The notes under the pieces were generated by a model. The model saw only the letters and a program-made list of their open reading frames with translations, searched no databases and was not told the DNA's origin. The position numbers and the translations under genes were made by a program. DNA of 35,371 bases from an uncultured Candidatus Saccharibacteria bacterium. GTDB taxonomy: Bacteria; Patescibacteriota; Minisyncoccia; Portnoybacterales; UBA2143. This document shows, one piece after another, positions 5,512 through 30,922 of the stretch (position 1 is its first letter; each line of letters opens with the position of its first letter). Where the stretch lies: positions 1 through 35,371 of the forward strand of contig CAZPQT010000002.1 of assembly GCA_964589195.1 (NCBI GenBank), read 5' to 3'.

Positions 5512-6840
5512 ATGTTTAAGTGGCTTCTCCTTTTAATCGCTTATCTTCCCTTTCAGATCGCTTTAAATCCACGGCCAGCTTTTGATTTAGCTTCGCTGCG
5601 GGTTTTTATTGTTTTATTGTTTGTTATCTGGTTGGGGAAGGCCCTTACAACGAAAAAATTGATTGGCTGGACTTGTTTTAAAAATCTTCAGAGTATTGGT
5701 TTATTTCTTTTTTTTATTTTGGCTGGTTTTTCTTTAATTGGCGCTGAAAACATTATTTGGGGATTAAGAAAGCTCATTTTTTTCCTGTCAGTTTTCCCTC
5801 TTTATTTTTTAGTTACGGCCTTGATTGATAACTGGCTAAAGATTAAAAAGATTATTTTTGCCTTGACGGGCGGGGCTGGTTTAATTGCTTTGATTGGCTT
5901 GGGGCAATTTATTGCCCCATTTATTTTTGGTCTGGATAAAATCTGTCAGTTTTGGGCCTGGCAGATTGTGCCTGTTTTTTCTGGTTTTAATTTTGGCGCT
6001 TTGATTCTAGCTTATTCCAGCTGGCTGGTTAATGTTGATGGTTATACTATTTTAAGAGCTTTTTCTCTTTTTTCCGACCCTCACATGTTTTCTTTCTATT
6101 TAGGTCTGATTTTGCCTTTAATAGTTGTTTTAATATATGTTTCTGATGCGGTTCGGTCTCGGCAAGTGCCAGACTCTAAAACTGGTTTCCTTTTTATTAT
6201 TTATTGTCTATTGTTTACCGTATTATTATTAACCTTTACTCGCGGCGCTTATTTTGCCATTATTGTTACTTTTTTGGTTTTAGCCGGACTTTTTTGGCGA
6301 TATTTAAAAGCAAAAAAAATAGCCCTGCTTCTTGGTTTATCTCTTTTGGTTTTTATTATCCCAATTACCCCTATTGCCGATAGGTTTTATTCTTCTTTTG
6401 ATATGAGCGACGGTTCCAATGTTGGCCGCTTGGAGATGTGGCAGCAAGCTGGTCTGGCCGGTTTGGAGCGCCCTTGGCAGGGAGTTGGTTTAGGCAACTA
6501 TTCTTTATTAGTTGATGCAAATTTTGGCTATCGTAACCCGATTACGGCTCATAATCTTTATTTAGATATTTTTTCAGAGATAGGTATTTTTGCTTTAATA
6601 GTTTGGTTAGTTTTAATTTTAGGGACGATGGGACAACTGTTTTGGCAGATTAGAATTACCCCGGAGGTTGACCTTAATAAGGGGCAGACCATAATAAGAA
6701 TTGGCTTGATTGGCTCTTTGGTTTATTTTTCAGTCCATAGTTTTTTTGAAACTTCTATTTATCATCCATCCATTTTAGCTCTCTTGATGATTATTCTTGG
6801 TTTGTCGTCTATTGTGGTTAATTTCAAGGACTGTCCTTGA
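5512..6840 (+). CDS. O-antigen ligase-like (Wzy_C) polytopic membrane protein
   Basis: About 10 hydrophobic helices plus a Wzy_C-type region (TFTRGAYFAI ... AHNLYLDIFSEIGIFAL). The last codons and the TGA stop lie inside the 17-nt palindrome at 6824-6840. Confidence 0.8.
   Translation: MFKWLLLLIAYLPFQIALNPRPAFDLASLRVFIVLLFVIWLGKALTTKKLIGWTCFKNLQSIGLFLFFILAGFSLIGAENIIWGLRKLIFFLSVFPLYFLVTALIDNWLKIKKIIFALTGGAGLIALIGLGQFIAPFIFGLDKICQFWAWQIVPVFSGFNFGALILAYSSWLVNVDGYTILRAFSLFSDPHMFSFYLGLILPLIVVLIYVSDAVRSRQVPDSKTGFLFIIYCLLFTVLLLTFTRGAYFAIIVTFLVLAGLFWRYLKAKKIALLLGLSLLVFIIPITPIADRFYSSFDMSDGSNVGRLEMWQQAGLAGLERPWQGVGLGNYSLLVDANFGYRNPITAHNLYLDIFSEIGIFALIVWLVLILGTMGQLFWQIRITPEVDLNKGQTIIRIGLIGSLVYFSVHSFFETSIYHPSILALLMIILGLSSIVVNFKDCP
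6824..6840. repeat. Core palindrome TCAAGGAC-T-GTCCTTGA (GGAC-N-GTCC family)
   Basis: 17-nt palindrome read directly from the sequence. It encodes the final ..KDCP-stop of the upstream ligase-like gene. Its last A is the A of the downstream ATG. Confidence 0.85.
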
Positions 6841-8063
6841 TGTCTATGCTTCAAAAAATTATTCATTTCACTATTTGTTTAATAGTTTTATCTTTGCCTC
6901 TTTATTTGATTCGTTTGAAGATTGGCTGGATGCCGACTAATCTTTTGGAATTGATGGTTGGCGTATTGTTTATTGTTTGGCTGTTGCAAATAACGCGAGG
7001 ACTGTCCTCAAACAGCAGTCCTAAGGACTGCTGTTTGAGGACAGTCCTCGCTCCCGTGTTTTTGATTTTTCTCGGCATTACTATTTCTACCCTCTTTTCA
7101 GTTGATGTGATAACTAGTGCTGGTATTTGGAAGGGCTGGTTTATTATTCCTCTGATTTTCTTTATTGTCATTATCAGTCATCTAAAGAGCAAAGAGCAGG
7201 TCAGAGACATTCTTTTCGCTTTATTTTTATCAGGAACCGGCGTGGCTTTAGTCGCCTTTTTTTATTGGTTGAATGATAATTTAACTTACGATGGTCGCTT
7301 ACGGGCTTTTTATCTTTCGCCTAATCACTTGGCCATGTATTTATCGCCTGTTCTAATTTTGTCTTTTTATTTATATCCTTCTTTTAAAAAAAATATTTCC
7401 AGAATTTTACTGTTTACAGCCGATTGTCTATTATTTACTGTCATTTACTTAACTTACTCTTACGGCGCCTGGTTAGGAATAGGAGGCGCTTTAATTTTTA
7501 TTTTAATCATTTTTTTTAGGAGTCGGACTCCTGAAAACAAAAGGCATTTTTTTTACCTGATGAGTTTTTTTCTTTTGTTGGTTGTTCTCTCCTTCGTCTG
7601 GCAAATCCCCAGTCAAAAATTTCAGGGCTTCCTTGATTTTTCTTATCCTTCCTGGCAATCCCGGCTAATTATCTGGCAAAGCGCCGGGGAAATAATAAAA
7701 GACCACTCCTTAATTGGGATTGGTCCGGGTATGTTTCAAAAATATTATTTGGCTTACCAGGCTAAATCTCCGACTTATTTAGAATGGGCTGTCCCTCAAC
7801 CTCATAACCTTTTTTTGGCTTTCTGGCTGCAAACCGGCCTGCTCGGCTTAATGGGTTTTATCTGGTTGTTGTCTATTTTTTTTAGAAGCGAGGATTCTAA
7901 AAGAAGCCTCGCTTCTAAATTGTTATCGAATATTCTAATGGCCACTATGCTCTATATCCTCATCCACGGCTTAGTTGATACCACCTACTGGAAAAACGAT
8001 TTATCAATTATCTTCTGGCTGCTCATAGCTCTAAACTATACAAATGACCGTCTCTCTTATTAA
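6840..8063 (+). CDS. Second O-antigen ligase-like polytopic membrane protein
   Basis: YSYGAWLGIGGAL ... QPHNLFLAFWLQTGLLGLMGF. The ATG at 6840 overlaps the upstream TGA (ATGA). The ORF track starts at an in-frame TTG at 6837. The gene carries a 57-nt palindromic in-frame insert at 6995-7051. Confidence 0.75.
   Translation: MSMLQKIIHFTICLIVLSLPLYLIRLKIGWMPTNLLELMVGVLFIVWLLQITRGLSSNSSPKDCCLRTVLAPVFLIFLGITISTLFSVDVITSAGIWKGWFIIPLIFFIVIISHLKSKEQVRDILFALFLSGTGVALVAFFYWLNDNLTYDGRLRAFYLSPNHLAMYLSPVLILSFYLYPSFKKNISRILLFTADCLLFTVIYLTYSYGAWLGIGGALIFILIIFFRSRTPENKRHFFYLMSFFLLLVVLSFVWQIPSQKFQGFLDFSYPSWQSRLIIWQSAGEIIKDHSLIGIGPGMFQKYYLAYQAKSPTYLEWAVPQPHNLFLAFWLQTGLLGLMGFIWLLSIFFRSEDSKRSLASKLLSNILMATMLYILIHGLVDTTYWKNDLSIIFWLLIALNYTNDRLSY
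6995..7051. repeat. 57-nt perfect palindrome (28-nt arms, 1-nt centre), GGAC-N-GTCC family, inside a CDS
   Basis: GCGAGGACTGTCCTCAAACAGCAGTCCT-A-AGGACTGCTGTTTGAGGACAGTCCTCGC. The length is 19 codons. It translates as RGLSSNSSPKDCCLRTVLA within the ligase-like protein. Confidence 0.9.
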
Positions 8064-9138
8064 CAAAAAGAAGATAATCCTCTGAGGGAGATAAGAGCAA
8101 TTGTTGAACGTCGTAGGACATTTCTTCTTCGTCAATGGGAATATAAATTTGATTTTTTTCCCCAATATCCAGGTTAATTGCCCAAAAGTCATCAGCCAAG
8201 GAGACGAGACGCTTATAATAATCGTCTGGCAAAGTGGCTAAATTAGAAATAGTTTTAGGAACAGCGCAGAAAATAGTTCGGTTGTCTTGAGACCAAACAC
8301 ATTTTTCCGGCAGAGTGACAAAATCTAATTCTTGAACAGTTGACTTAGCCAGGTCAGCTATTTTTAATTTAAGATTCTTGCCTTGGTTATCTGTTTCGGA
8401 AAAGAGCAACTTGTTTCCCAGCGGCGACCAAAGAACAGTTAAGCCGTATGTTTCACTAATGATTTTTTGGAAATCACCGGTCGCTAAATCAATTGTATAA
8501 ACGACACTTTGGGCTAAACCGCTTGGTTTAGTTCTAATAGATATTTGACTTGAACTAGGCCATTCCACAATTAAGTTTTTCATTCGGGTGGTAAAAATAT
8601 TTGTCCATTGAGAACCATCGGGATTGGCCAGACTGATGTTATTGTCTTCGGTTTGCGAGTTATGGTATTGATAAGCGATTTTGTCTTCGTTTGGTGACCA
8701 GGCAATATACTGGATATGCTGATTTAGTAAAGTTGATTTGCCAGTTTGGTAATCGTAGAGATATTTTTTTACTTCTCCCTTATCATCAAAAATAGCAATA
8801 ACCTTATCTTTATTTGACGACCAGAAAACTCTCAAGAGATTAGATAGAATATTAGGAGATAGGCGAGTTCGCTCTAAACCATCAAAAGTTGACTCAAAAA
8901 CATAGCCATTATTTTTTAAATAGTATTTAACTTTCTGGCCATCAATAATCGGGTCTAAGACCGGCTCTTGAGAAATAGCTTTAATGGGGCCGGTTAGCGA
9001 TGTTGTCGGAGTGGTTGTGGCTGATGGAGTAACCGATGGAGTTATTTCTTCTTTAAGGAAAAAATTATAGACGACCAAAAAACCCACTACAAGGATGAGT
9101 AGGATGATTGAAATGACGAGAATTTTTTTAAGAGACAT
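8023..9138 (-). CDS. Membrane-anchored TolB-like beta-propeller (PD40 repeat) protein; last gene of the T4SS-like string
   Basis: N-terminal TM helix (ILVISIILLILVVGFLVVY) and a Thr/Pro linker. Repeated W-S-P-x-x-[DN]-K motifs follow: VFWSSNKDKVIAIF, IAWSPNEDKIAYQY, VLWSPLGNKLLFSE, CVWSQDNRTIFCA, LLLSPSEDYLLFV. Confidence 0.6.
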   Translation of the reverse strand: MSLKKILVISIILLILVVGFLVVYNFFLKEEITPSVTPSATTTPTTSLTGPIKAISQEPVLDPIIDGQKVKYYLKNNGYVFESTFDGLERTRLSPNILSNLLRVFWSSNKDKVIAIFDDKGEVKKYLYDYQTGKSTLLNQHIQYIAWSPNEDKIAYQYHNSQTEDNNISLANPDGSQWTNIFTTRMKNLIVEWPSSSQISIRTKPSGLAQSVVYTIDLATGDFQKIISETYGLTVLWSPLGNKLLFSETDNQGKNLKLKIADLAKSTVQELDFVTLPEKCVWSQDNRTIFCAVPKTISNLATLPDDYYKRLVSLADDFWAINLDIGEKNQIYIPIDEEEMSYDVQQLLLSPSEDYLLFVNKRDGHLYSLEL

Positions 9139-10871: not shown

Positions 10872-12902
10872 TTAGTAAGCAGTATCTTTTTCTCCTTTTT
10901 CTTCGGCAGCTGGCTTGGGAATGGCTTCGGGTGCGGGTTCAGAAGCGGGTTGAGGGGCAGGTTCAACATCAGGTTTAGCAACGGGTTCAGGGGCAGATTT
11001 TAAAACGGATTCAGAAGCGGGTTCAGTTGTCAGTTCGGGAACGGCTTCGGGCGTAGGTTTGGGAATAGCCGGCGCGGCCGTGGGGTGAGGAATGGATTCG
11101 CTTTCGGATGTTGTTTCTTCTTCAGCCAATTCTTCTTTAGCTTTTTGTATTTCCATTAACTGAGCTGGGTCAGAAGTAATAATTTGGTCTTCGGTATAGG
11201 AGGCGATTATCTTGATAGCCACATGTTTTAGGCCGGCGAAAAAGAGACCCTCGCCGACCGGACATTCCAAAAGCATATATTTCTCCTGGTCAGTCAAATT
11301 AAAAGTTTCTTTGATTACTTCAATCGTGGCCGGCGACTGCTTTAAGAGAAGCTGTAAAGAAGAGTTAGTCACAATCGGCTTGCCGTATTTGGATTTCATA
11401 AAATCAGCCACATCCTGGGTAATAGTAGTTAAGCCAAGGTAATATTTGCGGCATCTCTTGGCAATACCATAAAGGAAGGAACCAGCGTCATCGTGCTGCA
11501 TCATCCACCAGGCCTCGTCAACCACCATCATTCTCTTTTTTTTCTCAGCGCGAATAACGTTCCAGATATAGCGTAAGACAACATACATAGCCAGTGGCCT
11601 TAATTCATCTTCCATATCCCGAATACTAAAGACAATTAATTTATTCTTTAATTGAACGTTGGTTGGTTGGTTAAAAAAGCCCGCGTAACTGCCGCTAACA
11701 TATTTTTCTAAGCGGGTCGCCAAGCTTTCTCCGCCAGTCATCCCTTTTAAAATAGCATAAAGGTCTGACATTAAAGGCGGGCTGATTTTACTAAAATCAG
11801 ATTCCGGCGTAATATCGCGAGCGGCGTAAGTTTGAGTTAAGGCCTTATCCATAACGGCATCCTCTTCAGGAGTCAGGCCGCCCAGCATCATTCTTAAAAG
11901 ACCGACTAAATTAATGATATTACTTCTCAATAGGTTGGCTGGCTTATCGTCTGGTCCGGGGATAGGCAGGTCAAATGGGTTAAGGTTATTGGGCGAAGTT
12001 AAGGAAATATCAATAAACGAACCGCCAACTGTCTCCGCTAAATACTTGTATTCTTTTTCCGGGTCAATGACAATCACTTCAGTATCCTGCATTAAGGAAC
12101 GGAGAATTTCTAATTTAATTGCGTATGATTTTCCTGAACCTGACTTGGCAAATACGCACATATTGGCGTTTTCCAAACCAAAGCGGTCAAATAGAATTAA
12201 AGAGTTGTTGTGTCGGTTAATACCATATAGAATCCCCTTATTATCAGTCAAATCAGAAGAGATAAAGGGAAAATTAGAGGAAAGAGAGGCAGTATTTAAA
12301 CTGTTGTGAATAAGGAGCTTATCTTCTTCTAAGGGGAGAGTGGAGATAAAGCCCTGTTCCTGCTGAAAGACAGCTGGTTTAGCATAAATACTCTGGTTTT
12401 CCAAGAGGGCCCTGATTTTATTTTCAATTTCATCTAATTGTTTAGCGGAATCAGCAAAAAAAGTGAGATAAAGGCCGAATTTGAAAAGCCGTTCTGCCCC
12501 TTGCTGGAGTTTATCGCGCAGCTCTTCAATATTTTTGAGAGCTGTTTCCAAAACCGGGCTGCGGACTTTGCCTTTTTCTTGCTGGAGAGACATTTGGGAC
12601 TGGATTTGGGCTGTTTTTTTGGTTAAGTTTTTCAAAATAACACCTGTTTCAAAAGGATGAATAAACAGAGCAATATTCATTTCCTGGTCCAGAGTGATTA
12701 AAGGCGAAAGCCAGCCAGTATTCAAAACAGCTGGATAAGTAAAGACAAAAATAGTTCGGCCGTATTTTTCGCCAATTTGAAAATAATTAGAATCAATTTT
12801 CAAGCCAGCCGGGGCAATCATATCAACCAAGCTGGTTGGTTGGCTTATTTCGGGAAATTCTTCTCCGCCTATGGCAGATTCATTTTTTTTAAATAGGGGC
12901 AT
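10872..12902 (-). CDS. virB4: VirB4/TrbE-family T4SS ATPase with a C-terminal Pro/Glu/Ala-rich tail
   Basis: Walker A CVFAKSGSGKSYAIK (about nt 12121-12160). Walker B MMVVDEAWWMM (about nt 11499-11531). VirB4-type N-domain (IAPAGLKIDSNYFQIGEKYGRTIFVFTYPAVLNTGWLSPL). The last ~85 aa are low complexity (PKPTPEAVPELTTEPASE...PAPQPASEPAPEAIPKPAAEE). Confidence 0.9.
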   Translation of the reverse strand: MPLFKKNESAIGGEEFPEISQPTSLVDMIAPAGLKIDSNYFQIGEKYGRTIFVFTYPAVLNTGWLSPLITLDQEMNIALFIHPFETGVILKNLTKKTAQIQSQMSLQQEKGKVRSPVLETALKNIEELRDKLQQGAERLFKFGLYLTFFADSAKQLDEIENKIRALLENQSIYAKPAVFQQEQGFISTLPLEEDKLLIHNSLNTASLSSNFPFISSDLTDNKGILYGINRHNNSLILFDRFGLENANMCVFAKSGSGKSYAIKLEILRSLMQDTEVIVIDPEKEYKYLAETVGGSFIDISLTSPNNLNPFDLPIPGPDDKPANLLRSNIINLVGLLRMMLGGLTPEEDAVMDKALTQTYAARDITPESDFSKISPPLMSDLYAILKGMTGGESLATRLEKYVSGSYAGFFNQPTNVQLKNKLIVFSIRDMEDELRPLAMYVVLRYIWNVIRAEKKKRMMVVDEAWWMMQHDDAGSFLYGIAKRCRKYYLGLTTITQDVADFMKSKYGKPIVTNSSLQLLLKQSPATIEVIKETFNLTDQEKYMLLECPVGEGLFFAGLKHVAIKIIASYTEDQIITSDPAQLMEIQKAKEELAEEETTSESESIPHPTAAPAIPKPTPEAVPELTTEPASESVLKSAPEPVAKPDVEPAPQPASEPAPEAIPKPAAEEKGEKDTAY

Positions 12903-12906
12903 ATTT

Positions 12907-13578
12907 TTATTGGATTCTCATTTCTTTGGCTTTTTGGAGCTCTGGTTCTTCTTTGGCGCTGGGGTTATATAATTTATAGAAAAGCTCAACTATTTCTTCG
13001 GTTTTTAAGGGGATGGCCTTAAGGCCGATTCCTTGCAGGCCAGAAATGACAAACTCCATTCTTTGCCAAAGATTATTTTTAATTTCTTGAAATTTTTCTT
13101 CCTGGACCGCTGGTTGTTTTTTTCCGCCTCCAAAAAACTTACTGAAGAATCCTGCCTTTTTGACAATAGAGGGACTGTAAGGAATTACCAGATAAAAGGA
13201 TTCAGTCATAACATTAGTCATTTCAGTTAATTCTTTGATAAAATCAATATATTCCGAGGTCTGGATTTTTAAGAGTTCGTTTTCTTGTTGATTTTGTTTT
13301 TGTTCTAGCATTTCAATGTAGGGGGTGATGTCAAATTTTCGAGAGGCGGCCACAATTTGGATGGGAAAGTCAAGGGAATTGAGGAGATTTTGATAACGAT
13401 AGATGGTGGCATCTTGTTCTTCAGTTGATTTAAGGGCAAAGTTTAAGCTGCTGGTCATTAAAATAGCCCGCCAGCCGCCGCTTTTAAGAATAATGACATC
13501 GTCTCTAATCTCTTTAATTGATAAATGCTGTTGAATGGAAGCTGATTTTTTTTGTTGAGGCATTATTTTTTTCTCCAA
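12907..13578 (-). CDS. Hypothetical protein, possibly a detached N-terminal module of VirB4
   Basis: 223 aa with no TM helix. IKEIRDDVIILKSGGWRAILMTSSLNFALKSTEEQDATIYRYQNLLNSLDFPIQIVAAS resembles the extreme N-terminus of long Gram-positive VirB4 proteins, as I recall them. There is a 4-nt gap to virB4 and a 16-nt overlap with the PrgI-like gene. Confidence 0.45.
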   Translation of the reverse strand: MEKKIMPQQKKSASIQQHLSIKEIRDDVIILKSGGWRAILMTSSLNFALKSTEEQDATIYRYQNLLNSLDFPIQIVAASRKFDITPYIEMLEQKQNQQENELLKIQTSEYIDFIKELTEMTNVMTESFYLVIPYSPSIVKKAGFFSKFFGGGKKQPAVQEEKFQEIKNNLWQRMEFVISGLQGIGLKAIPLKTEEIVELFYKLYNPSAKEEPELQKAKEMRIQ

Positions 13579-13841: not shown

Positions 13842-13843
13842 AT

Positions 13844-14713: not shown

Positions 14714-14736
14714 TTTTTTTATTTGATATTTATTAT

Positions 14737-17088: not shown

Positions 17089-17123
17089 TTTAACTAAACT
17101 CTAATTAGATTCTTATTCCTCGT

Positions 17124-22276: not shown

Positions 22277-22282
22277 AGATGA

Positions 22283-22341
22283 TGAGGGACTGTCCCTAAG
22301 ATACAGTCCTTCAAGGACTGTATCTTAGGGACAGTCCCTCA
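22283..22341. repeat. 59-nt perfect palindrome, GGAC-N-GTCC family, at the helicase/rsmA junction
   Basis: TGAGGGACTGTCCCTAAGATACAGTCCTT-C-AAGGACTGTATCTTAGGGACAGTCCCTCA. It encodes the helicase C-terminus EGLSLRYSP and its TGA stop. Confidence 0.9.
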
Positions 22342-24221
22342 GGAATATCGGAAAGGAATCTAGAAGGTGGATTAACCATGGTTTGGCCATAGAGGCGCCG
22401 TTGTTGGGTAAATGTAAGATAGACCCGTTGTTTGGCTCGGGTTATCCCCACATAGCAAAGCCGTCTTTCTTCTTCCATTTGTCCAAGGTCAAAAGAGCTT
22501 CTTGAATGGGGAAAAATTCCCTCTTCACAGCCAATAATAAAAACCACCGGAAATTCTAATCCTTTGGCGCAATGCAAGGTCATTAAATTGATTAAGTTCT
22601 TTTTTGTCTCCACTTCATCAAGACTACTTAATAAAGAGACTTCTTCTAAAAATTTTTCCAAGCCCAAACCGGGTTTCAGTTGATTATATTTATTAGCCAC
22701 GGTCAAAAGTTCTTGGACATTTTCCCAGCGCCTCTCCCCTTCTTCTTGACCATCACGAATATATTTTTCGTAATTAATTTTTTGGATGATTGTTTTGATT
22801 AAATTAGTTAAAGGCATTTTTTGGCTGGTTTGGCGGAAATTGTCAATTAGTTGATAGAAGTTTTTAAGTGGTTCAGGGACAGTCCCTAATCTCCAGTCCT
22901 TTTCCGAAGGACTGGAGATTAGGGACTGTCCCTGATACTTGGCTAAACGTCGGGGAGGAACATTAATGATTCTTTGGCAACTAACCAAATCATTAGGATT
23001 AACAATCAGTTTAAGATAAGCCAGCATATCTTTAATTTCTTTTCGTTCATAGAACCTGACCGTGCCAATAATTTTGTAAGGGAAATTTGCTTTTAAAAAG
23101 GCCTCTTCCACAGCTCGCGACTGGGCATTGGTCCGGTAAAGAACAGTGAAATCCTGAAACTTGAAGCCTGAAACTTGAGATAAATTAGTTATCTCATCGA
23201 CAATAAAATTTCCCTCTTTTTCTTCATCGGCTAATTCAACAAGATTAATTAAATCTCCTGGGGGATTTTTAGTCCAAAGGTTCTTTTCTTTGCGTTGAGT
23301 ATTTTTGCTGATAATATGGTGGCTGGCCTCTAAGATATTGGGAGTGGAGCGGTAATTCTCTTCTAAAAGAATCACTTTGGCCTGAGGATAGTCCTTTTCA
23401 AAATTTAAGATGTTCCTGAAGTCAGCTCCTCGCCAGCTGTATATTGACTGGTCTGGATCGGCAATAAGCCAGAGATTTTTATACTTTTCAGCCAATAAAT
23501 TTATTAAAGTATATTGGCTGAGATTTGTGTCATGGGCCTCGTCAACTAAAATATACTGCCATTTTTCCTGGCATTTTTTCAAGATAGCCGGATTTTTCTG
23601 GAAGAGTTGGACAGTCAGCATAATTAAATCATCAAAATCAAGGGCATCGGCCTTTTTTAAAGCAGTTTGATAAGCCAGGTAAATTTTAGCTATGGTCTGG
23701 GGAAAATATTCTTGGGCTTGGGCTTGATAGGTCTGACAGTCAATTAATTCGTCTTTAGCTCGGGAAATCATTTCGCCAGCTGATTTTGGCTTGAATTGTT
23801 CTGGATTAATTTGCAGGTCTTTGATTATTTTTTTAATTAAAGAGAGCTGGTCAGTTTGGTCATAGATAATGAAATTTTTTTGATATCCCTTTAGTCCGTC
23901 CTCTGGCGGAAATTTATCTATTTCCCGACGGAGAATTTGTAAACAAATAGCATGAAAAGTGCCAATGGTTGGCGCAGACTGAGAAGGGCCGCTTCTCAAG
24001 AGAAGTTTTTTAACCCTTTCTTTCATTTCTCCAGCGGCTTTATTGGTAAAAGTAACGGCCAGGATATTGGCTGCAGGAATATCTTGCCGAATAAGATAGG
24101 CAATGCGGTGAGTTAAACAACGAGTTTTCCCCGAGCCCGGTCCGGAAATAACTAAAACCGGTCCCCTTAAAATGGTGACCGCTTGTTTTTGTTTTGGATT
24201 AAGTGAAGAAAGTATGTCCAT
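22311..24221 (-). CDS. pcrA: UvrD/PcrA/Rep-family ATP-dependent DNA helicase, carrying palindromic-element sequence
   Basis: SF1 helicase motifs: ISGPGSGKTRCL (I), TFTNKAAGEM (Ia), ILVDEAHDTN (II), IADPDQSIYSWRGA (III), ENYRSTPNIL (IV), LYRTNAQSR, LMTLHCAKGLEFPVVF (V), EEERRLCYVGITRAKQ (VI). Confidence 0.9.
   Translation of the reverse strand: MDILSSLNPKQKQAVTILRGPVLVISGPGSGKTRCLTHRIAYLIRQDIPAANILAVTFTNKAAGEMKERVKKLLLRSGPSQSAPTIGTFHAICLQILRREIDKFPPEDGLKGYQKNFIIYDQTDQLSLIKKIIKDLQINPEQFKPKSAGEMISRAKDELIDCQTYQAQAQEYFPQTIAKIYLAYQTALKKADALDFDDLIMLTVQLFQKNPAILKKCQEKWQYILVDEAHDTNLSQYTLINLLAEKYKNLWLIADPDQSIYSWRGADFRNILNFEKDYPQAKVILLEENYRSTPNILEASHHIISKNTQRKEKNLWTKNPPGDLINLVELADEEKEGNFIVDEITNLSQVSGFKFQDFTVLYRTNAQSRAVEEAFLKANFPYKIIGTVRFYERKEIKDMLAYLKLIVNPNDLVSCQRIINVPPRRLAKYQGQSLISSPSEKDWRLGTVPEPLKNFYQLIDNFRQTSQKMPLTNLIKTIIQKINYEKYIRDGQEEGERRWENVQELLTVANKYNQLKPGLGLEKFLEEVSLLSSLDEVETKKNLINLMTLHCAKGLEFPVVFIIGCEEGIFPHSRSSFDLGQMEEERRLCYVGITRAKQRVYLTFTQQRRLYGQTMVNPPSRFLSDIPEGLSLRYSP
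22873..22935. repeat. 63-nt palindrome (29-nt arms, 5-nt loop), GGAC-N-GTCC family, inside the helicase gene
   Basis: TCAGGGACAGTCCCTAATCTCCAGTCCTT-TTCCG-AAGGACTGGAGATTAGGGACTGTCCCTGA. The length is 21 codons. It translates on the minus strand as QGQSLISSPSEKDWRLGTVPE. Confidence 0.9.
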
Positions 24222-24242
24222 TTAATTATTTATACTTTTCCC

Positions 24243-25691
24243 TTATTCTGTCTCCTCCCACATATCGGTCTGGTAATTTTCTTCAGTAGGGAAATAAGGC
24301 GGTGGGTTGTAAAGCAGATTATTGTCGTAGTTCAATTCAACATTGGCAAAGCCGGCGGCCCAGCACCAGGCCCAAAAACAATATTGGCCGCCAAATTCCC
24401 CTAAATAATTTGCCGCAATCGAGCCATTAATGATTAAGGTGCCTAATTGGTCGCCAAGGTCCTCCCGGCCAACTTGCCCCTCTTTAGCTACTAAAGCGGC
24501 ATTGATTTCTAAATCAGGCTGACCAGCATCTTTGTCAATCATGATATTATCTTGGGCAATTAAGCCGACTACGGCTTCCTCATCAGTATGTAATATGTCG
24601 TCTTGGATAATAATATCAGCTAAATTGTTAGCTCCCGGCAAATCAACGCCTGATAAATTAGCTGCTCCAATAGTAATCTGATTAGGACCGACTTCTCCTT
24701 TAACCCAGACAGTTGCTTCAGTAAAAATCAACCGGCTGGCCGGCCAAGGATAATTGCCCAAAAGTTCCGAGCCGCTAAAAGCGGGCAGAAACCATCCCCA
24801 AAAACTCCAACCGCTGGTCTGGTAAATGTCAATAGTAGAATTATCCTTCAATTCAATAATATAGCCAGATGGGTCCCAAAGTTCAATCAGACAGAACCAA
24901 TCAAATGGCCAGCAGTGTTTCTCCGGCGGCGGCAAATAGTAGTTTGTTCCCCAAGTCAAATCTTTCATTGTGTCCATTTTGCCAAGCAGAGCATTAAAAT
25001 CAATAATAGGCACGCCATCCTCGCGGCCGCCTAAGAAAACTTCAGCTGGTTCTTTAGTTGTCCAGACGCCTGGCTCAACTTCTTCTTCAGTGATAGGGTC
25101 AGGATGGGTCGTTTCAGAGGCCGTAGCTAAATTATAGATAACTCCATCAACTCTTAAATCTTCATTGGAATGGGCTCTGCCTTTAACAGTCATCCCTTCG
25201 GGCAAATAAGCCCGATGATTAATTAAAATGACGTATTCTCCCCAAGAAGGTTTTCTTCTTCTGACCCGGATAGTTCTTTTCATTTGAGGATAATCATTAG
25301 TCCAGCCAGTGGATTTAATCAGGACCGCATTGCTGCCAGGCAAGGGCAGAGTAATTTCTATTTGATAATGACCAATAACTGTGCCATATTGGTCTTTAAA
25401 GTCGCCTTGATAAGGGTCGGGAAAGCCAATGGTTTGGCCTTCAGCCCAGAATTGGGCTTGCTCTAATTCACTCAGACCTTCTAAGGCATGGGCTAAATAC
25501 CACTGATAATATTCAATGCCTGATTCAGCGATATGAAAAGATTGCTCTTTAGCGACCATTCGCTGACTGTTTCTGTATTGAATTAAAATATAGCCTACCA
25601 GACCAGATAAAATTAACAAAAAAACAGAGCTAAAAACCAAAACCAAGGTTAAGATAGTTCCTTTTTCGTTGAGTTGATTGAATGAGGGCAT
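24243..25691 (-). CDS. PilX-like / pilus-associated membrane-anchored protein, hypothetical
   Basis: 482 aa. The N-terminus NEKGTILTLVLVFSSVFLLILSGLVGYIL resembles the PilX N-terminal anchor. It lies directly downstream of two prepilin-like genes. The rest is unrecognised. Confidence 0.5.
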   Translation of the reverse strand: MPSFNQLNEKGTILTLVLVFSSVFLLILSGLVGYILIQYRNSQRMVAKEQSFHIAESGIEYYQWYLAHALEGLSELEQAQFWAEGQTIGFPDPYQGDFKDQYGTVIGHYQIEITLPLPGSNAVLIKSTGWTNDYPQMKRTIRVRRRKPSWGEYVILINHRAYLPEGMTVKGRAHSNEDLRVDGVIYNLATASETTHPDPITEEEVEPGVWTTKEPAEVFLGGREDGVPIIDFNALLGKMDTMKDLTWGTNYYLPPPEKHCWPFDWFCLIELWDPSGYIIELKDNSTIDIYQTSGWSFWGWFLPAFSGSELLGNYPWPASRLIFTEATVWVKGEVGPNQITIGAANLSGVDLPGANNLADIIIQDDILHTDEEAVVGLIAQDNIMIDKDAGQPDLEINAALVAKEGQVGREDLGDQLGTLIINGSIAANYLGEFGGQYCFWAWCWAAGFANVELNYDNNLLYNPPPYFPTEENYQTDMWEETE

Positions 25692-25719
25692 AATTTCGCC
25701 GGGAGTGATTATCGTTTGT

Positions 25720-26355
25720 TTAATAATTCTGTTTAGTATTTCTTAATTGGACTTTTGATTCAATTTCTAAAACCCCAGGGGCTCGTTCAGGATTAACATC
25801 TACGGCCATTTTAATACCAATTAAAGTGATTTCATCTAAAATATCACCTGGCACCGGAGTAGCTAAGGGCAGGTCAGTTTCTTTTCCGGCATGGGTTTGG
25901 TCATAAAAATAGAAGAGAGGGGTTGAGCTGGTATTTTTTACATAATCAGAAATAATTTTAATCTCTTCTGGGCCAGAATAATCAACGGGGTTTCCAGATG
26001 GTTTAATCATCCCCTTTTTTAGTTTTTCCTCTTCTAAAAAATAACGGACTCTTTTCACTTGGTCATCTTTGTCAATATCGCTATAGAAAATAATTTCAAA
26101 ATCATCACCGCTGGCCAAAAGATAAGTGCCGCTGTCCGACTGAATAGCTTCTCTTAATTCTTTGGTTAATTTGTTGACGCCGTTGCGGGCGCTGTCAATA
26201 GCCAGGGCTTGGGCCAGGGAAAAACCCTTGGCCCGATAAGCATAAATCATAAAACCGTTCACCGCTGTCAGGGCAAAAATAAATATACCCAAAACGACTA
26301 ATGTCTCAATAAGGGTAAATCCCCTTTGCTTTTTTTTGAATAATAATTTCATCAT
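25720..26355 (-). CDS. Prepilin-type N-terminal cleavage/methylation domain protein (minor pilin/pseudopilin-like)
   Basis: KKQRG|FTLIETLVVLGIFIFALTAV is a canonical class III signal with Glu at +5. ATGA overlap with the upstream gene. Confidence 0.8.
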   Translation of the reverse strand: MMKLLFKKKQRGFTLIETLVVLGIFIFALTAVNGFMIYAYRAKGFSLAQALAIDSARNGVNKLTKELREAIQSDSGTYLLASGDDFEIIFYSDIDKDDQVKRVRYFLEEEKLKKGMIKPSGNPVDYSGPEEIKIISDYVKNTSSTPLFYFYDQTHAGKETDLPLATPVPGDILDEITLIGIKMAVDVNPERAPGVLEIESKVQLRNTKQNY

Positions 26356-27677
26356 TCCAAAGGAATTAGTTCAATAATTGCTTCAGTAAAATCATTAATT
26401 GTTTGGGGACCGGAATAATCTTGGTAGCCGGTTTTAGAAACCGATAAAGTATAATTGCCATCAATTAAATCCTCTTCATCAAAAGGGAAAATAGCAAGGC
26501 CGTCTTCATTGCTTTGAGAAGTTTTATCGTAGGCCAGATTAGATAATCTGACTATTGCCCCCGAAAGACCATTGCCAGTGGAAGCATCTTTAACTAAGAG
26601 GCGCAAGTAGGACTGGTCAACAGGCGCCAGGGTAATAGTAATTGATTGCTGAATGTCCGATTCAACAATAAGTGGTCTTTCTAAATTGGGCGTTAAAACA
26701 GCGTAATCAGAACTGATTACTTCGAGATAATATTCGCCGCTGCTCATATTATTAAGCTGTTTTTCTCCACTAGCATCGGTAACTAAATAGTCGTTTTCAT
26801 AAGAATAGACCTTTGAATCATCAATGGGATTTATACCGATGGCCCGGCCTCCTTTTAGGGTGAAGGGAATTTGGGCTAAGGGCTGATTCTGGTCGTCAAC
26901 TGTTTGAACATTGATAGCGCTCACTTTGGCAATAAGGAAATATCTGGTTGTTTTATCTCCTTCAATAAGCTGGGCCTGAGAATATTCTGGTTCCGGGTCA
27001 AGTGATGCCGAGACCGAATAAGTCCGGTGTTCGTCATAACCGGTTTGACTGACATGGATTTCATAGTCATTTGAAGGAGGCAGACCGGGTCGAGAAAGCC
27101 AGCCATTATCGTCAGTGGTTGTAAAAATATAGACCGCTGGTTCAACTTGGTCATTAATTATCTCTGTTTGGGCATTAACGATCGGCTGACCGGATTGGCT
27201 GTCATTAACATAAAGCGAAAGAGTGCCGCCGCTAACTTCTGATTCTAAATTAGGCGGGCTAAGATTAGCTATTTCCACGACCGACTTAATCAATTCATGT
27301 TCTGACCAGGTTATGGCTACTCTGGCTTTTTTGTAATCAGCCGCCAGTTCGTCATCAGGAGATATTCCATCAAAGGGGTCATCAATATAGATAATATCGG
27401 TGGTGATAGTGTAGAGCCGATTATCTTTTTCTTTGGTTCTGATTTGAGGAATTTCGCCAGGCGGCACACCGTCTTGAGTGCCAATATCTTGATAGGGCAA
27501 GTTTCTAATGATTTCTATTTGCTCATTAGCCAGAGCCAAGGCAACAGTCCGACCTTGTGACTGAGCTAAGACCCTAAAAAGTAATTGGAATCCGGTAAAA
27601 ATACCGAGCATTACAATAACCAGCAGAGCGGTTCCGACCAAAACATCTATAAAAGTAAAACCATTTTTATGTCTCAT
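26352..27677 (-). CDS. Large prepilin-like protein (minor pilin-like) with beta-sandwich repeats
   Basis: MRHKNG|FTFIDVLVGTALLVIVMLGIF is a prepilin-like N-terminus, but with Asp at +5. The 441-aa body contains repeated segments resembling carboxypeptidase-regulatory-like or Ig-like domains (LSLYVNDSQSGQPIVNAQTEI.., LRLLVKDASTGNGLSGAIVRL..). Confidence 0.65.
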   Translation of the reverse strand: MRHKNGFTFIDVLVGTALLVIVMLGIFTGFQLLFRVLAQSQGRTVALALANEQIEIIRNLPYQDIGTQDGVPPGEIPQIRTKEKDNRLYTITTDIIYIDDPFDGISPDDELAADYKKARVAITWSEHELIKSVVEIANLSPPNLESEVSGGTLSLYVNDSQSGQPIVNAQTEIINDQVEPAVYIFTTTDDNGWLSRPGLPPSNDYEIHVSQTGYDEHRTYSVSASLDPEPEYSQAQLIEGDKTTRYFLIAKVSAINVQTVDDQNQPLAQIPFTLKGGRAIGINPIDDSKVYSYENDYLVTDASGEKQLNNMSSGEYYLEVISSDYAVLTPNLERPLIVESDIQQSITITLAPVDQSYLRLLVKDASTGNGLSGAIVRLSNLAYDKTSQSNEDGLAIFPFDEEDLIDGNYTLSVSKTGYQDYSGPQTINDFTEAIIELIPLE

Positions 27678-27693
27678 CTTAAGATTATATCAC

Positions 27694-27720
27694 AAAAAAC
27701 AGCCCTTGCCATTAGGACTG
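27694..27720 (-). terminator. Rho-independent terminator candidate downstream of pilC
   Basis: On the minus strand: CAGTCCT-AATGGCA-AGGGCTG (7-bp stem including one G.U pair) followed by TTTTTT. The stem arms resemble the inner arms of the GGAC-N-GTCC repeat family. Confidence 0.5.
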
Positions 27721-27745
27721 CTTGATTAATTTAAAACCGAAATTT

Positions 27746-28972
27746 TTAAAGCCCGCCCATCATTGAATACATTGGTTGAATCATAGAAATAGCAAAGAAA
27801 CCAACGGCGGCCCCAATAACAACCATAATCACCGGCTCAATGATAGAAGATAAATTTTTGGTTGTATTATCAATTTCTTCTTCGTAAAAATCAGCCAAGT
27901 TTTTTAAAATATCAGACAAGCTGCCAGTTTGTTCGCCGACTTGAATCATCTGGACGACCATGGGCGGGTAAAGATTCTTATAGTTGATTAAAGCCTGACT
28001 TAATTCTTTGCCTCTTTGGACTTGTTCGGCTGAATTAATTAGGGCTTCTTTGAAATGGACATTACCCAAGGTGCCGGCGACGATTTGCAAGGCCTTAACA
28101 ATGGCCAGGCCGCTTTCCATCAAAGAACTTAGCGACCGGGCAAAACGAGCTGAATTAGTTTTTTGGACTAAATTACCCAAGATAGGCAAATGAAGATAGA
28201 TTTTATCAAGAACCCTTTTGAATTTCTTGTTTCTTAGACCAAATCGGAGAAGAATAATCGAGCCGATGAAGCTCATTAAACCTAGGAATAAATGATTTTT
28301 TAAGAAATTACTCAAACCAATGACTATCTGAGTGCTTAAGGGTAGTTCCATATTAAATTCAGTAAAAACTTCAGTCAATTTTGGAACAACCATAATCATC
28401 ATTAAAATACCAATGCCAATCATAGCCGTAATAATTACCGCTGGATACATCATGGCTCCTCTGACTCGGCTGATTAATTCGTGGTCTTTCCTCATTTGTT
28501 CAGCTAGAATTTTTAAAACTTTATCTAAATTGCCACTGGTTTCACCAATCCGAACCATACTAATATAGAGCTCATTAAAGACCTTGGGCTCTTTGGCTAA
28601 GCAATCACTCAGAGGCTGACCGCGGCGGAGATCTTCTTCTACCCGGCCAATAATCTTTTTAAATTTCGGATTTTTAGTTTGTTCAGCCAGGACGCGCAGA
28701 GCTTGATTGAGAGAAAGGCCAGCTTTAATCATAATTGACAAATGCCGGCTAAAAATCATTTTTTCAACCAAAGAAATCCGTCCTATTCTTTGAAGAAAAT
28801 CTTTTAAGTCAAAATGACCAGCTTTTTCTTTTTGAGCAGTTGTTTCAGCGGAAATTAAAACTAGGTCCTGTTCTCGGAGAATAGCCGCTAACTCGTGCTT
28901 GTTGATTGCTTCTAATGTTCCCGCCTTGTTCTCTCCTTTTTTAGTTTTGGCTATGTAGAGATAAGTAGGCAT
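27746..28972 (-). CDS. pilC: Type IV pilus / T2SS platform protein PilC (GspF family)
   Basis: 408 aa with two GspF-type repeats (FSRHLSIMIKAGLSLNQALRVLAEQ and FARSLSSLMESGLAIVKALQIVAG) and three TM helices. It lies adjacent to pilB. Confidence 0.9.
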   Translation of the reverse strand: MPTYLYIAKTKKGENKAGTLEAINKHELAAILREQDLVLISAETTAQKEKAGHFDLKDFLQRIGRISLVEKMIFSRHLSIMIKAGLSLNQALRVLAEQTKNPKFKKIIGRVEEDLRRGQPLSDCLAKEPKVFNELYISMVRIGETSGNLDKVLKILAEQMRKDHELISRVRGAMMYPAVIITAMIGIGILMMIMVVPKLTEVFTEFNMELPLSTQIVIGLSNFLKNHLFLGLMSFIGSIILLRFGLRNKKFKRVLDKIYLHLPILGNLVQKTNSARFARSLSSLMESGLAIVKALQIVAGTLGNVHFKEALINSAEQVQRGKELSQALINYKNLYPPMVVQMIQVGEQTGSLSDILKNLADFYEEEIDNTTKNLSSIIEPVIMVVIGAAVGFFAISMIQPMYSMMGGL

Positions 28973-29000
28973 GAATTTAAATTTCTAATATCTAAATCCT

Positions 29001-29067
29001 GTCAAGGACTGTATCTTAGGGACAGTCCCTATGTTACAGTCCTTGGTATGACGAGGACAGTCCTTGA
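29001..29067. repeat. Composite/rearranged copy of the GGAC-N-GTCC palindromic element between pilB and pilC
   Basis: 29004-29030 (AAGGACTGTATCTTAGGGACAGTCCCT) is identical to the right arm of the copy at 22313-22339. TCAAGGACTGT (29002-29012) pairs with ACAGTCCTTGA (29057-29067). Confidence 0.8.
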
Positions 29068-29100
29068 ATTGATAGAAATTAGGATTTTGGATTTAGGAAT
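29053..29100 (+). repeat. Inverted-repeat arm abutting the pilB stop codon (partner at 30850-30898)
   Basis: GAGGACAGTCCTTGAATTGATAGAAATTAGGATTTTGGATTTAGGAATT matches the reverse complement of 30850-30898 at 44 of 49 positions by hand alignment. Confidence 0.8.
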
Positions 29101-30849
29101 TTAATCTTGACTGACCCTCAAAACCTCTTCAATGCTAGTTTGTCCCTGGGCGGCCTTAATAAAACCATCTTCAAGCATAGTCAGCAAACCTTCTTTTTTA
29201 GCTTGTTCCTCAATTTGGCCAGAGGTAGCTTCTTTAATGATTAGGTCCTTGATTGTCTCACTGAGTTCAAGAACCTCATAGATACCAACCCGGCCTTTGT
29301 ATCCGTCAGGACAATTTTCTGATTTGCCTGGTCGATAAAATTCAAGAGATGACCAATCGGCTTTTGAAGGAAGAATTTTTTCTTCTTTAAGGATTTTAAG
29401 AATTCTTTCTAAATCGAATTGGTTTTGAAGACTCTTGAGCTCAGCTGGATCGAGTTTGTATTTTTGTTTTGTCTCCGGACAAAGTCGGCGAACTAATCGT
29501 TGAGCTATAATAACATTGGTCGTTGAGGCAATAAGGAAGGGTTCGGCTTTCATATCAATCAGCCGGGGAAAAGTCCCGGCCGCGTTATTGGTGTGTAAAG
29601 TAGAAAGGACCAGATGGCCGGTTAGAGCAGCGTTGATAACCAAACTAGCTGTTTCATTATCCCTAATCTCACCAACCATAATGATGTCCGGGTCTTGACG
29701 AACTAAGGCGCGTAAGCCGTTGGCAAAGGTCAGGCCGATTTTTGGTTTGACTTGGGTTTGATTAATTCGAGGCATGCGGTATTCAATCGGGTCTTCAACG
29801 GTTGAAATATTGACGCCTGGTTCATTAAGAATATCCATAATTGTATAAAGAGTGGTTGTTTTGCCGCAGCCAGTTGGCCCGGTGACTAAAATCATCCCAT
29901 TTGGCTTTTTGATGTTTTGATGAATTCTTTCCAGGGCTTTACTTCTTAGACCTAATTTTTCTAAAGTTAAGCCCTTAGCATCTTCCGGGAGAAGTCGGCA
30001 GACAATTTTTTCTCCATCATAAACCGGCAGAATGGAAACTCGGAAAGAAATTTTGTATGCTTCGGTTTCAATTTTAAAACGGCCGTCTTGGGGCAAACGA
30101 TGTTCATCTAATTTTAGATTAGATAGGACCTTAATCCGAGCGACCACGCCTGAACGAATCTTTCTGGGCAGGGTCATGGCATCATGTAAAATGCCATCAA
30201 GGCGATAGCGAACAATAACTTCTTTTTCCAGAGGTTCAATATGAATATCCGAGGCCTGCTGTAAAATTGCGTGCTTAAGCAGCGTATCTACAATCTTAAT
30301 AATGGGCATTTGTTCGGCTGCTTTTTCTAACTCTTCCTTACTTTCTTCTCCTTCTTTTTCTGGCAGAGTGACTATTTTGGATTCTTCTTTAATTAATTCG
30401 CCGAATTCGGCTTCTAAACTTTTTTGATATTGCTTGAGGGCATTTTTAATACTGACTGAATTAGTTAACCGAGGCAGGATTTTTAAGTCGGATTTCTTTT
30501 TAATAAATTCAATTGTCTGCAGGTCATCTGGATTAAGCATAGCCACTTCTAATTCTTTGCCTTTCTTGCGGAAAGCAATAATATTGTGTCGCCGAGCAAT
30601 TGGTTCGGGAATAATTTGCAGAATTTCTTCAGGGATAGTTTCTTTCTCTAAATTGACAAAAGGAATGCCGAGGATATAGGCCTCTAGCTTGATTAGTTGT
30701 TCTGGGCTAATTATTTTATCTTTAACTAAAACTTGAGCCAATTCCTCATTGGTTTCTTTTGCCTTTTCTTCAGCCCGGTCTAATTTTTCTTGAGTGGTCA
30801 GCCCAGTGTCAAGAATAAAGGCCTTGATTTGTGAATCTTCAACCTGCAT
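29101..30849 (-). CDS. pilB: Type IV pilus assembly ATPase PilB (GspE family)
   Basis: N-terminal T2SSE_N-like domain. Walker A GPTGCGKTTT. Walker B/Asp box DIIMVGEIRD. His box TGHLVLSTLHTN. Cys pairs CPETKQ...CPDGYKGR. I prefer the ATG at 30849 (MQVEDSQ..) over the upstream in-frame TTG at 30882 used by the ORF track. Confidence 0.9.
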   Translation of the reverse strand: MQVEDSQIKAFILDTGLTTQEKLDRAEEKAKETNEELAQVLVKDKIISPEQLIKLEAYILGIPFVNLEKETIPEEILQIIPEPIARRHNIIAFRKKGKELEVAMLNPDDLQTIEFIKKKSDLKILPRLTNSVSIKNALKQYQKSLEAEFGELIKEESKIVTLPEKEGEESKEELEKAAEQMPIIKIVDTLLKHAILQQASDIHIEPLEKEVIVRYRLDGILHDAMTLPRKIRSGVVARIKVLSNLKLDEHRLPQDGRFKIETEAYKISFRVSILPVYDGEKIVCRLLPEDAKGLTLEKLGLRSKALERIHQNIKKPNGMILVTGPTGCGKTTTLYTIMDILNEPGVNISTVEDPIEYRMPRINQTQVKPKIGLTFANGLRALVRQDPDIIMVGEIRDNETASLVINAALTGHLVLSTLHTNNAAGTFPRLIDMKAEPFLIASTTNVIIAQRLVRRLCPETKQKYKLDPAELKSLQNQFDLERILKILKEEKILPSKADWSSLEFYRPGKSENCPDGYKGRVGIYEVLELSETIKDLIIKEATSGQIEEQAKKEGLLTMLEDGFIKAAQGQTSIEEVLRVSQD

Positions 30850-30898
30850 AATTTGTAAATCCAAAACCCTAATTTCTATCAATCCAAGGACTGTCCTT
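30850..30898 (-). repeat. Inverted-repeat arm abutting the pilB start codon (partner at 29053-29100)
   Basis: The minus strand reads AAGGACAGTCCTTGGATTGATAGAAATTAGGGTTTTGGATTTACAAATT, immediately followed by the ATG. It includes the core palindrome CCAAGGAC-T-GTCCTTGG (30884-30900). Confidence 0.8.
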
Positions 30899-30922
30899 GG
30901 CAGAATTCAGATATCAAAAATT

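Follow-up and report, generated by a model that had tools for sequence, protein, structure and literature searches.

We analyzed a 35,371-nt stretch of Patescibacteria (candidate phyla radiation, CPR) DNA, hereafter the window, which has a G+C content of ~39% and Candidatus Portnoybacteria as its best named relatives. It holds four full palindromes, one composite copy, and two solo cores built on the motif GGACWGTCC. The palindromes are doublets of a very short repetitive extragenic palindrome (REP) unit, placed ~14 nt apart in inverted orientation, that is, REP doublets forming hairpins (REPINs), and such elements belong to a small Portnoybacteria-like clade of Patescibacteria. Very probably they form, with a REP-associated tyrosine transposase (RAYT), a REPIN-RAYT system of that clade. 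The kind of element is known, and the host group is one for which we found no earlier description: our literature search retrieved no account of these elements or of RAYTs in CPR, the sole match being an archaeal locus.

All four full palindromes are perfect inverted repeats. They were identified at 6995-7051 (28-nt arms 6995-7022 and 7024-7051, 1-nt loop, spacer TCAAACAG), 21936-21994 (29-nt arms 21936-21964 and 21966-21994, 1-nt loop, spacer TCTGATA/TATCAGA), 22283-22341 (copy C; 29-nt arms 22283-22311 and 22313-22341, 1-nt loop, spacer TAAGATA/TATCTTA), and 22873-22935 (29-nt arms 22873-22901 and 22907-22935, 5-nt loop, spacer TAATCTC/GAGATTA). The composite copy at 29003-29065 comprises an inverted repeat (29003-29045, 21-nt arms, 90%) and a third core at 29055-29063. 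It is laid out as AAGGACTG-TATCTTA-GGGACAGTCCC-TATGTTA-CAGTCCTT followed by the third core, and its positions 29002-29030 are identical to 22311-22339 of copy C. The 17-nt solo cores are TCAAGGACTGTCCTTGA at 6824-6840, a REP singlet, and CCAAGGACTGTCCTTGG at 30884-30900, in the spacer between a response-regulator gene and pilB. The inverted-repeat analysis bore out the positions and architecture that an initial annotation of the window had given for full copies, composite copy, and cores, and the arm segments quoted there (TCTGATACAG, TAAGATACAG, TAATCTCCAG, and CAAACAGCAG) proved correct. GGACWGTCC occurs 12 times in the window against 0.03 expected from shuffles, and AAGGACTG occurs 14 times against 0.88 expected. 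Folded as single-stranded DNA, the full copies reach -34 to -36 kcal/mol (z = -12 to -14). Rfam matched no family in the window except two tRNAs.

Fold-back chimeras can yield perfect palindromes, and several contigs end inside elements, which could speak for an assembly or chimera artefact, an outcome that the initial annotation had named as refuting. Eight independent JGI/Logan assemblies of the window population, 99.8-99.95% identical to the window, cover stretches within 21936-30902 (the copies at 6824 and 6995 lie outside their range), and each palindrome inside the stretch that a given contig covers has the same sequence there, save a 2-nt variant at 22299-22300. The palindromes also recur at orthologous sites in related species, drawn from ENA, JGI, and NCBI assemblies, and ORFs (open reading frames) read through them. 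The probability of an artefact is therefore negligible.

A scan for the full architecture (GGACWGTCC-N8-CAGTCCT-N0-8-AGGACTG) in one genome for each of 185,579 species returned 35 loci, all in five related Patescibacteria metagenome-assembled genomes (MAGs), one of which, CAYOWE, is ~93% identical to the window; there were zero chance matches beyond these five. A catalogue of motif clusters from related genomes, 82 in all, revealed a modular family built on the word ACAGTCC (reverse complement GGACTGT), which is repeated at ~14-nt intervals in one orientation or the other. Extending this word to a near-palindrome gives GGACWGTCC, with the conserved context T-N-A-R before GGAC; one alternating pattern, cut in different ways, yields full copies, composite copies, and solo cores alike. 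Hairpin doublets characteristic of REPINs were present both as the window copies and in 80-odd clusters of the related genomes, with conserved ends, a variable compensated spacer, and near-identical copies specific to each genome. Each species has its own set of spacers and its own repeated master sequence, which indicates copy-and-paste within lineages: repeated masters were identified in CAYFWT and CAZKWY, and the clade of the window, CAYOWE, and CAZYSH has 13 different compensated spacers.

With a density of 0.3-1 motifs per kb, both orientations, coding and noncoding positions, and clade-specific dialects, and with type IV pilus genes in the window, the family could recall a DNA uptake sequence (DUS), an uptake signal sequence (USS), a motif such as highly iterated palindrome 1 (HIP1), or a protein-binding motif amplified by molecular drive. 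However, ACAGTCC is not enriched in the window outside composite elements (2 against 1.4 expected), the copies share spacers and architecture beyond the core, and they are associated with RAYT genes, which makes this origin very unlikely; a DUS- or HIP-like motif was rejected on the lack of enrichment. A tandem interspersed guide RNA (TIGR) or CRISPR-like array was likewise dismissed, as the copies are dispersed and lie in genes, with no array and no Cas or Tas neighbor.

RAYT-type genes flanked by the repeats

Sequences of E. coli RayT and IS200, used as probes only, were compared with six-frame ORFs of the fetched loci (numbered here with the prefix L); the RAYT assignment itself is based on the Pfam, NCBIfam, PDB, and Foldseek searches that followed. 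The RayT probe picked two ORFs, L013:2211-2813 in MAG CAYFWT and L021:1878-2474 in CAZKWY, in the two loci of highest motif density. Both match Pfam Y1_Tnp (PF01797; E 3e-12 and 2e-13, respectively) and NCBIfam NF047646 (REP_Tyr_transpos), the sole family match, at 70-72 bits. The HUH motif NHVHLL and the tyrosine motif YIHLNP are conserved across 36 homologues, and a profile of these 36 had its best PDB match in 4ER8 (E. coli TnpA-REP), over the RF..H / YI..NP region. An AlphaFold model (mean predicted confidence, pLDDT, 90.3) gave 4ER8 as the top Foldseek match as well (E 2e-7, 155 aligned columns, ~15% identity); TnpA of IS200, IS608, and ISDra2 ranked behind it with ~105-130 columns, and all matches were Y1 transposases. 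A phmmer search of the CPR sequence against PDB sequences found no match, and the family profile and fold search were needed. Judged from the profile and the predicted fold, the CPR enzyme is RAYT-type, with a Y1/HUH fold closer to TnpA-REP than to IS200/IS605 TnpA.

In five lineages (L013, L021, L122, L123, and L134-136), the RAYT gene is flanked on both sides by GGACWGTCC elements, as the initial annotation's analogy with RAYT-mobilized REP elements and bacterial interspersed mosaic elements (BIMEs) would have it. The flanking elements match the type found elsewhere in the loci of the same genome, in L013 and L021 the commonest type, and the RAYT stop codon lies inside the flanking element. 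RAYT homologues are common in Patescibacteria, and many end in KDCP, RDCP, or KDSP, meaning that the repeat overlaps their stop codon. The synteny RAYT / NTP_transferase / sigma-70 / DUF5667 is conserved across lineages of 64-94% identity, which fits vertical descent. A relative at L124 (72% identical) has a diverged repeat, as expected from co-evolution of enzyme and repeat.

One of these genes, P0122 (L136), comes from JGI sample 3300031257, in which the window's genome is present as well (L127, 99.93% identical to the window). Downstream of P0122 lies a REPIN whose 27-nt arms match 22285-22311 and 22313-22339 of copy C exactly, and from this match and the shared sample P0122 is the probable cognate enzyme of the window's genome. 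A divergent Y1_Tnp-like gene of CAYOWE (L007 2136-2940, contig CAYOWE010000029.1), encoding 232 aa that are 36% identical to the CPR RAYT and located between rpoB and rpoC, was rejected as the cognate enzyme. It is flanked by its own palindromic repeat, GGAGTGCCACTCC, with one copy inside its own ORF, and this different REP was found nowhere else in the fetched DNA nor in the window.

A scan of metagenome contigs with the RAYT alignment found only distant relatives, of at most 48% identity. Apart from two cores in L050, the GGACWGTCC repeat is missing from these, and one of them, L046, carries classical GTAG REPINs. The two cores of L050 (325-395, on a metagenome contig of 40% G+C) are direct copies of GGGACTGTCCC 47 nt apart, 370 nt upstream of a RAYT homologue that is 45% identical.

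Genic location and turnover of the copies

Of the four full copies, three are read in frame within ORFs and one extends across a stop codon, a feature that had not been noticed in the initial annotation. The copy at 6995-7051 is read as ..RGLSSNSSPKDCCLRTVLA.. in a Wzy_C/O-antigen-ligase-like membrane-protein ORF (6837-8063, + strand), that at 21936-21994 as ..RDSPSDTVLESRTVSEGLSL.. in the KsgA/RsmA ORF (21431-22276, - strand), and that at 22873-22935 as ..QGQSLISSPSEKDWRLGTVPE.. in the 2B-domain region of the UvrD/PcrA ORF (22311-24221, - strand). In copy C, the right arm encodes the UvrD C-terminus ..EGLSLRYSP and the palindrome centre is the UvrD TGA stop (22311-22313); the 34-nt spacer that precedes the KsgA start contains the left arm. 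Similarly, the first Wzy_C gene (5512-6840) takes its last residues, ..KDCP, and its TGA stop from the solo core at 6824-6840, which also overlaps the beginning of the second Wzy_C gene. The composite copy sits in the spacer between pilB (T2SSE) and pilC (T2SSF).

The in-frame peptides of the three copies use all three frames of the core (G-L/Q-S, D-C/S-P, and T-V-P/L), and thus no one peptide is under selection. Read in the frame of KsgA, the consensus spacer would introduce a TAA stop through one arm and a TAG stop through the other; the variants of the KsgA copy abolish both stops through exactly complementary changes, indicating that selection on the ORF and maintenance of the hairpin act together.

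With clusters at contig ends set aside, 79 remained, of which 26 fall within ORFs of 120 aa or more, 45 touch a stop or start, and 8 are otherwise intergenic. As ORFs make up 87% of the DNA, the elements are enriched outside ORFs, at gene boundaries, yet are tolerated in frame, and with 26 of the 79 clusters intragenic they depart from the extragenic location by which REPs are classically defined. Pfam-confirmed hosts include RNA polymerase beta-prime (rpoC), GT4 glycosyltransferases (three elements within one such gene), FemAB, and Wzy_C, and a lepA-like GTPase gene also hosts an element. In MAG CAYFWT, a lepA-like gene (L017 192-2511) is split into ORFs 192-1373 and 1837-2511, and its N-terminal part carries an in-frame palindrome; the split of ~460 nt, with a small opposite-strand ORF, could represent either a disruption or an intervening sequence. 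It matters for CPR genome annotation that peptides such as GLSL, RDSP, KDCP, and GTVP, and many odd C-termini, derive from the repeats.

The hairpins might instead serve the host as terminators, mRNA stabilizers, translational pauses, or protein-binding or cruciform sites, the RAYT neighborhood being incidental. Many copies lie exactly at gene ends, the folds are very stable, and orthologous copies persist at the same sites in three species with compensated changes. However, one cluster in three is intragenic, with every frame used and the proteins unrelated, and a terminator is impossible there; nor were there Rfam matches. Further, copies decay freely in some lineages (L004, L026), Candidatus Portnoybacteria GCA_016782465.1 (L002) has none in 22 kb of syntenic DNA, and the near-absence of G-U intermediates together with compensated transversions places the complementarity at the DNA level. 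We consider a host function unlikely as the whole explanation; it is compatible with REPIN identity and does not exclude it.

Comparison of orthologous loci, as the initial annotation had advised, revealed presence, absence, decay, and compensated copies among L001, L002, and L004. L002, although 85-90% identical to the window in the region, carries no element in the 22 kb. The solo core at 6824-6840 is conserved in the relative L125, and the neighboring copy at 6995-7051 is absent from orthologues of 79-83% identity, with 54 nt of unrelated native sequence at this site in L125 against 69 nt in the window. At the KsgA site, L001 has a compensated copy, L004 only a half copy, exactly as long as the native segment of L002, and L002 none; the native KsgA sequence of L002 reads TCAAGG at the boundary of the element. 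The UvrD-internal copy has no counterpart in L002. The composite copy is specific to the window lineage and absent from L001, L002, and L004, in which the pilB-pilC spacer measures 60 nt (with a different hairpin), 4 nt, and 4 nt, respectively. L001 has the solo core at 30884-30900 in decayed form, and L002 lacks it. The pilB gene is bracketed by the two arms (29049-29101 and 30850-30902) of a 53-nt inverted repeat with 89% complementarity, and each arm ends in a GGACWGTCC core. The arm upstream of pilB (30850-30902) is present but decayed in L001, and both arms are absent from L002 and L004.

Downstream of pilB, a 7-bp direct repeat, TAAATTC, flanks a ~113-nt window-specific insertion, and clean empty sites with a target duplication were sought and not found at the Wzy_C, KsgA, and UvrD sites. 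Together with the apparent replacement of native sequence by intragenic copies and an in-frame location like that of Rickettsia palindromic elements (RPEs; PMC3733652), the direct repeat would suit selfish palindromes spread without a RAYT, as a miniature inverted-repeat transposable element (MITE) of a DDE transposase, as RPE-like elements, or by recombination or template switching alone. Such a route is quite unlikely: the 340 kb of loci yielded no insertion sequence with such ends, the sole rve integrase seen belongs to L002, where elements are lacking, and the full copies show no target duplications; the first and last of these findings led us to discard a DDE-derived MITE. Moreover, five independent RAYT genes flanked on both sides are not due to chance at the observed motif density.

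Two further observations concern these loci. In L002, the relative that has no GGACWGTCC elements, the UvrD-KsgA spacer contains an unrelated ~90-nt palindrome (GAAAACAAATTTTTCAAATCG...CGATTTGAAAAATTTTGTTTTC, 11850-11950), with the rve-type integrase gene (13963-15036) nearby. In the distant UvrD orthologue P0010 (L137 7290-7340), ..LLKDCPEPL.. stands at the site of the window palindrome, as a decayed singlet or a native look-alike. The peptide LLKDCPE of distant UvrD orthologues was considered as a conserved solo core and dropped, since the L137 DNA, AAAGATTGTCCTGAA, has two mismatches from the core and the 13.9-kb L137 locus contains no GGACWGTCC.

Complementarity of the hairpin arms and a proposed mechanism

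Among 23 aligned copies, chosen from the symmetric type and to be read with that choice in mind, 95.6% of cells held standard pairs and 14 of the 30 pairs changed on both sides, in 79 cells. Wobble (G-U) pairs were almost absent from this set, and transversions were compensated. The covariation was reached by none of 500 shuffles, and slid controls fell to 26-48% paired.

Compensated changes were also identified between orthologous copies. At the KsgA site, the window reads GTCCC-TCTGATA where L001 reads GTCCT-TCAGATA, and both differences are mirrored in the partner arm. At the UvrD end, TAAGATA of copy C faces TAAAACA in L001, again mirrored, the L001 orthologue being perfect with two compensated changes. 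The UvrD-internal copy is perfect in the window, with three mirrored changes (TAATCTC), has two mismatches in L001, and is decayed in L004. Overall, the window and L001 differ on both arms at ~7 of the 30 free pair positions, at a fourfold-site divergence of 0.17, where independent arms would give ~1% double changes. The near-neutral concerted rate, the strictness of Watson-Crick pairing, and the compensated transversions would fit a re-copying of one arm from the other, and pair-by-pair compensatory selection would fit the arm data less well, a comparison that rests on few sites. The compensated orthologous changes favor arm-to-arm conversion, selection on the hairpin, or both. The maintenance of the hairpin by selection or by fold-back or templated repair, as first proposed for the window, thus gains support from the covariation and from the orthologous sites.

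The stronger initial claim, that every difference between copies is mirrored, was supported across the 23 copies and at the orthologous sites but is not absolute, with exceptions in three settings. In copy C, the population variant AG>GA at 22299-22300 (TAAGATA>TAGAATA) affects the noncoding arm, is unmirrored, and occurs in 6 of the 8 population contigs (L126, L127, L129, and L131-L133). Decayed copies were found in L001, L004, and L026. Finally, an internal mismatch block of 3-5 nt persists in the abundant master copies of both CAYFWT and CAZKWY (TAAAATA versus TAAGGGA and TTTTTTG versus TAAAATT). The UvrD-internal copy of L001, TAAAGTA, displays a one-position shift of G similar to that of the population variant.

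In the mechanism that we propose, a RAYT-type HUH/Y1 transposase, itself flanked by elements and expected to be single-copy and mainly vertically inherited, would recognize and cut the hairpin in single-stranded DNA and spread copies, by analogy with E. coli TnpA-REP and IS200/IS605. Mobility is suggested by the one lineage-specific copy at 29003 and by the species-specific bursts. In genomes with almost no intergenic space, copies would survive at gene boundaries, where they give stop codons and C-terminal tails, and others in frame in tolerant protein loops, all three core frames being open. The arms would stay complementary partly as only hairpin-forming copies are substrates. In addition, one arm may occasionally be re-copied in situ from the other by intrastrand template switching (quasipalindrome correction), which would reset the copy to a perfect palindrome and carry all changes of one arm to the other.

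Several observations weigh against a RAYT-driven system of this kind. The search for a RAYT that the initial annotation suggested succeeded in five related lineages, and no such gene lies within the 35-kb window. The link of P0122 with the window consists of a shared sample and identical repeat arms, not of physical linkage, and CAYOWE, the closest sampled relative, has only the divergent second Y1 gene in the ~75 kb fetched. The NCBIfam RAYT score of 70-72 bits is under the curated cut-off of 80, and GTAG or CGTC occurs within 8 nt of only 2 of 393 cores, so that the tetranucleotide tag found at one end of the stem-loop in classical REP superfamilies (Di Nocera et al. 2013) is absent. No excision or insertion event was directly observed; intragenic copies look like the replacement of native sequence of similar length and not like clean insertion, a pattern that, with the 7-bp direct repeat, is not expected from Y1 transposition. 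Finally, the asymmetric masters of CAYFWT and CAZKWY argue against a fast, universal homogenization of the arms.

The REPIN-RAYT reading nevertheless brings together the hairpin doublets, the repeat-flanked RAYT genes, and the covarying arms, and it extends the host range of these systems to ultra-small, gene-dense Patescibacteria. Where intergenic space is scarce, the repeats persist in housekeeping genes (KsgA, UvrD, rpoC, and lepA-like) and supply stop codons. The clade offers a natural system in which metagenomic populations can be used to measure what REPINs cost when they lie in coding sequence and what becomes of them, how arm complementarity is kept up, and how RPE-like protein-coding palindromes are linked to a dedicated transposase. 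Whether the elements are moreover a distinct, tag-less Patescibacteria class of REPIN-RAYT system, with a 9-11 nt REP recognized unlike GTAG REPs, patch replacement of coding loops of essential genes, and whole-arm, hairpin-templated conversion at a roughly neutral rate, is doubtful, and we put it forward tentatively; if true, it would mean that concerted evolution at the DNA level remodels protein loops in streamlined genomes.

Other features were seen in the window and in UvrD orthologues. Between a histidine-kinase gene and tRNA-Pro lies a 163-nt imperfect palindrome (32352-32514, 80-nt arms, 73% complementary); it is not related to the GGACWGTCC family, and none of the fetched loci contains a second copy. 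Directly following tRNA-Gly, a perfect hairpin (32713-32751, 19-nt arms TAATAATAAAATCCCGAAT / ATTCGGGATTTTATTATTA) looks like a terminator. Conjugation or type IV secretion-like genes (VirB4/TraC-like ATPase, TrbL-like, and PrgI-like) were identified at 10872-19169, adjoining type IV pilus genes, and the VirB4-like ORF has a Pro/Glu-rich C-terminus with a repeat of 36-nt period (10934-11026). Several UvrD orthologues (P0004, P0040, P0042, P0066, and P0075; 990-1077 aa) carry intein/Hint domains (PF14890, PF01079, and PF14528), which the window UvrD is without.

Comparison with known systems

REPIN-RAYT systems are discussed as long-lived, vertically inherited intragenomic replicators and, to our knowledge, have been studied almost only in Proteobacteria. 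As in those of Pseudomonas fluorescens and E. coli, a long hairpin arises from a pair of short palindromic units in inverted orientation together with a spacer, the ends are conserved and the spacers variable and compensated, and each genome has its own master sequence. Singlets and higher-order clusters accompany the doublets, and the Y1/HUH gene, with repeats on its flanks, has kept its syntenic position. RAYTs are defined in part by such flanking repeats (Bertels et al. 2017, PMC5581495), and compensatory changes in REPIN hairpins have been reported (Bertels & Rainey 2011, PMC3116915). In contrast to those systems, the host here belongs to the Patescibacteria, whose genomes are tiny and gene-dense, the REP unit measures no more than 9-11 nt, with a 14-nt period and no GTAG/CGTC tag, about a third of the clusters are intragenic, and the enzyme falls just under the NCBIfam equivalog cut-off and is ~15% identical to 4ER8.

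In-frame REP dimers are known from Opitutus terrae and Thioalkalivibrio, some of them in uvrA and uvrB (Di Nocera et al. 2013, PMC3733652), and Rickettsia RPEs are read in frame (Ogata et al. 2002; Claverie & Ogata 2003, both as cited in PMC3733652). Intragenic REP dimers and compensated REPIN hairpins are thus already published. Like these elements, the palindromes described here add ~20 residues in frame to functional proteins, including DNA-repair proteins, in any frame and at termini or in loops. The initial comparison with Rickettsia elements was apt in this respect, through an in-frame location that had not yet been noticed when it was drawn. Unlike them, the GGACWGTCC elements have unrelated sequences, are associated with a RAYT, and apparently replaced native segments of similar length, whereas RPEs, as far as they are described in that account, are CGTC-tagged or longer (RPE-1) and have no dedicated transposase. 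With the architecture confined to five Patescibacteria MAGs in the scan of 185,579 species genomes, the resemblance to RPEs is one of behavior and not of sequence family.

The Y1/HUH fold and a presumed single-stranded DNA hairpin substrate are shared with IS200/IS605 elements. In contrast to these, the transposase is not inside the repeat, only one closely related copy was found per lineage sampled, and the best structure and profile match is TnpA-REP and not IS200/IS608 TnpA. The mutational process of quasipalindrome correction, in which the template switches within one molecule (Ripley; Lovett and co-workers), is general and does not define an element family; it would explain the joint transfer of multiple changes between arms, the strict Watson-Crick pairing, and the near-neutral rate. 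The small dispersed repeats of cyanobacteria and HIP1 (Elhai and co-workers) are very short, modular, often nested palindromes in coding and noncoding DNA. Their sequences differ from the GGACWGTCC family, and we know of no RAYT link established for them as a class.

Set against these systems, the finding is unsurprising in principle and has some features that are unexplained; it provides a clean, population-sampled example in a streamlined genome. What differs from the known systems is the host phylum, the very short tag-less unit, the 14-nt modularity, and the high intragenic share.

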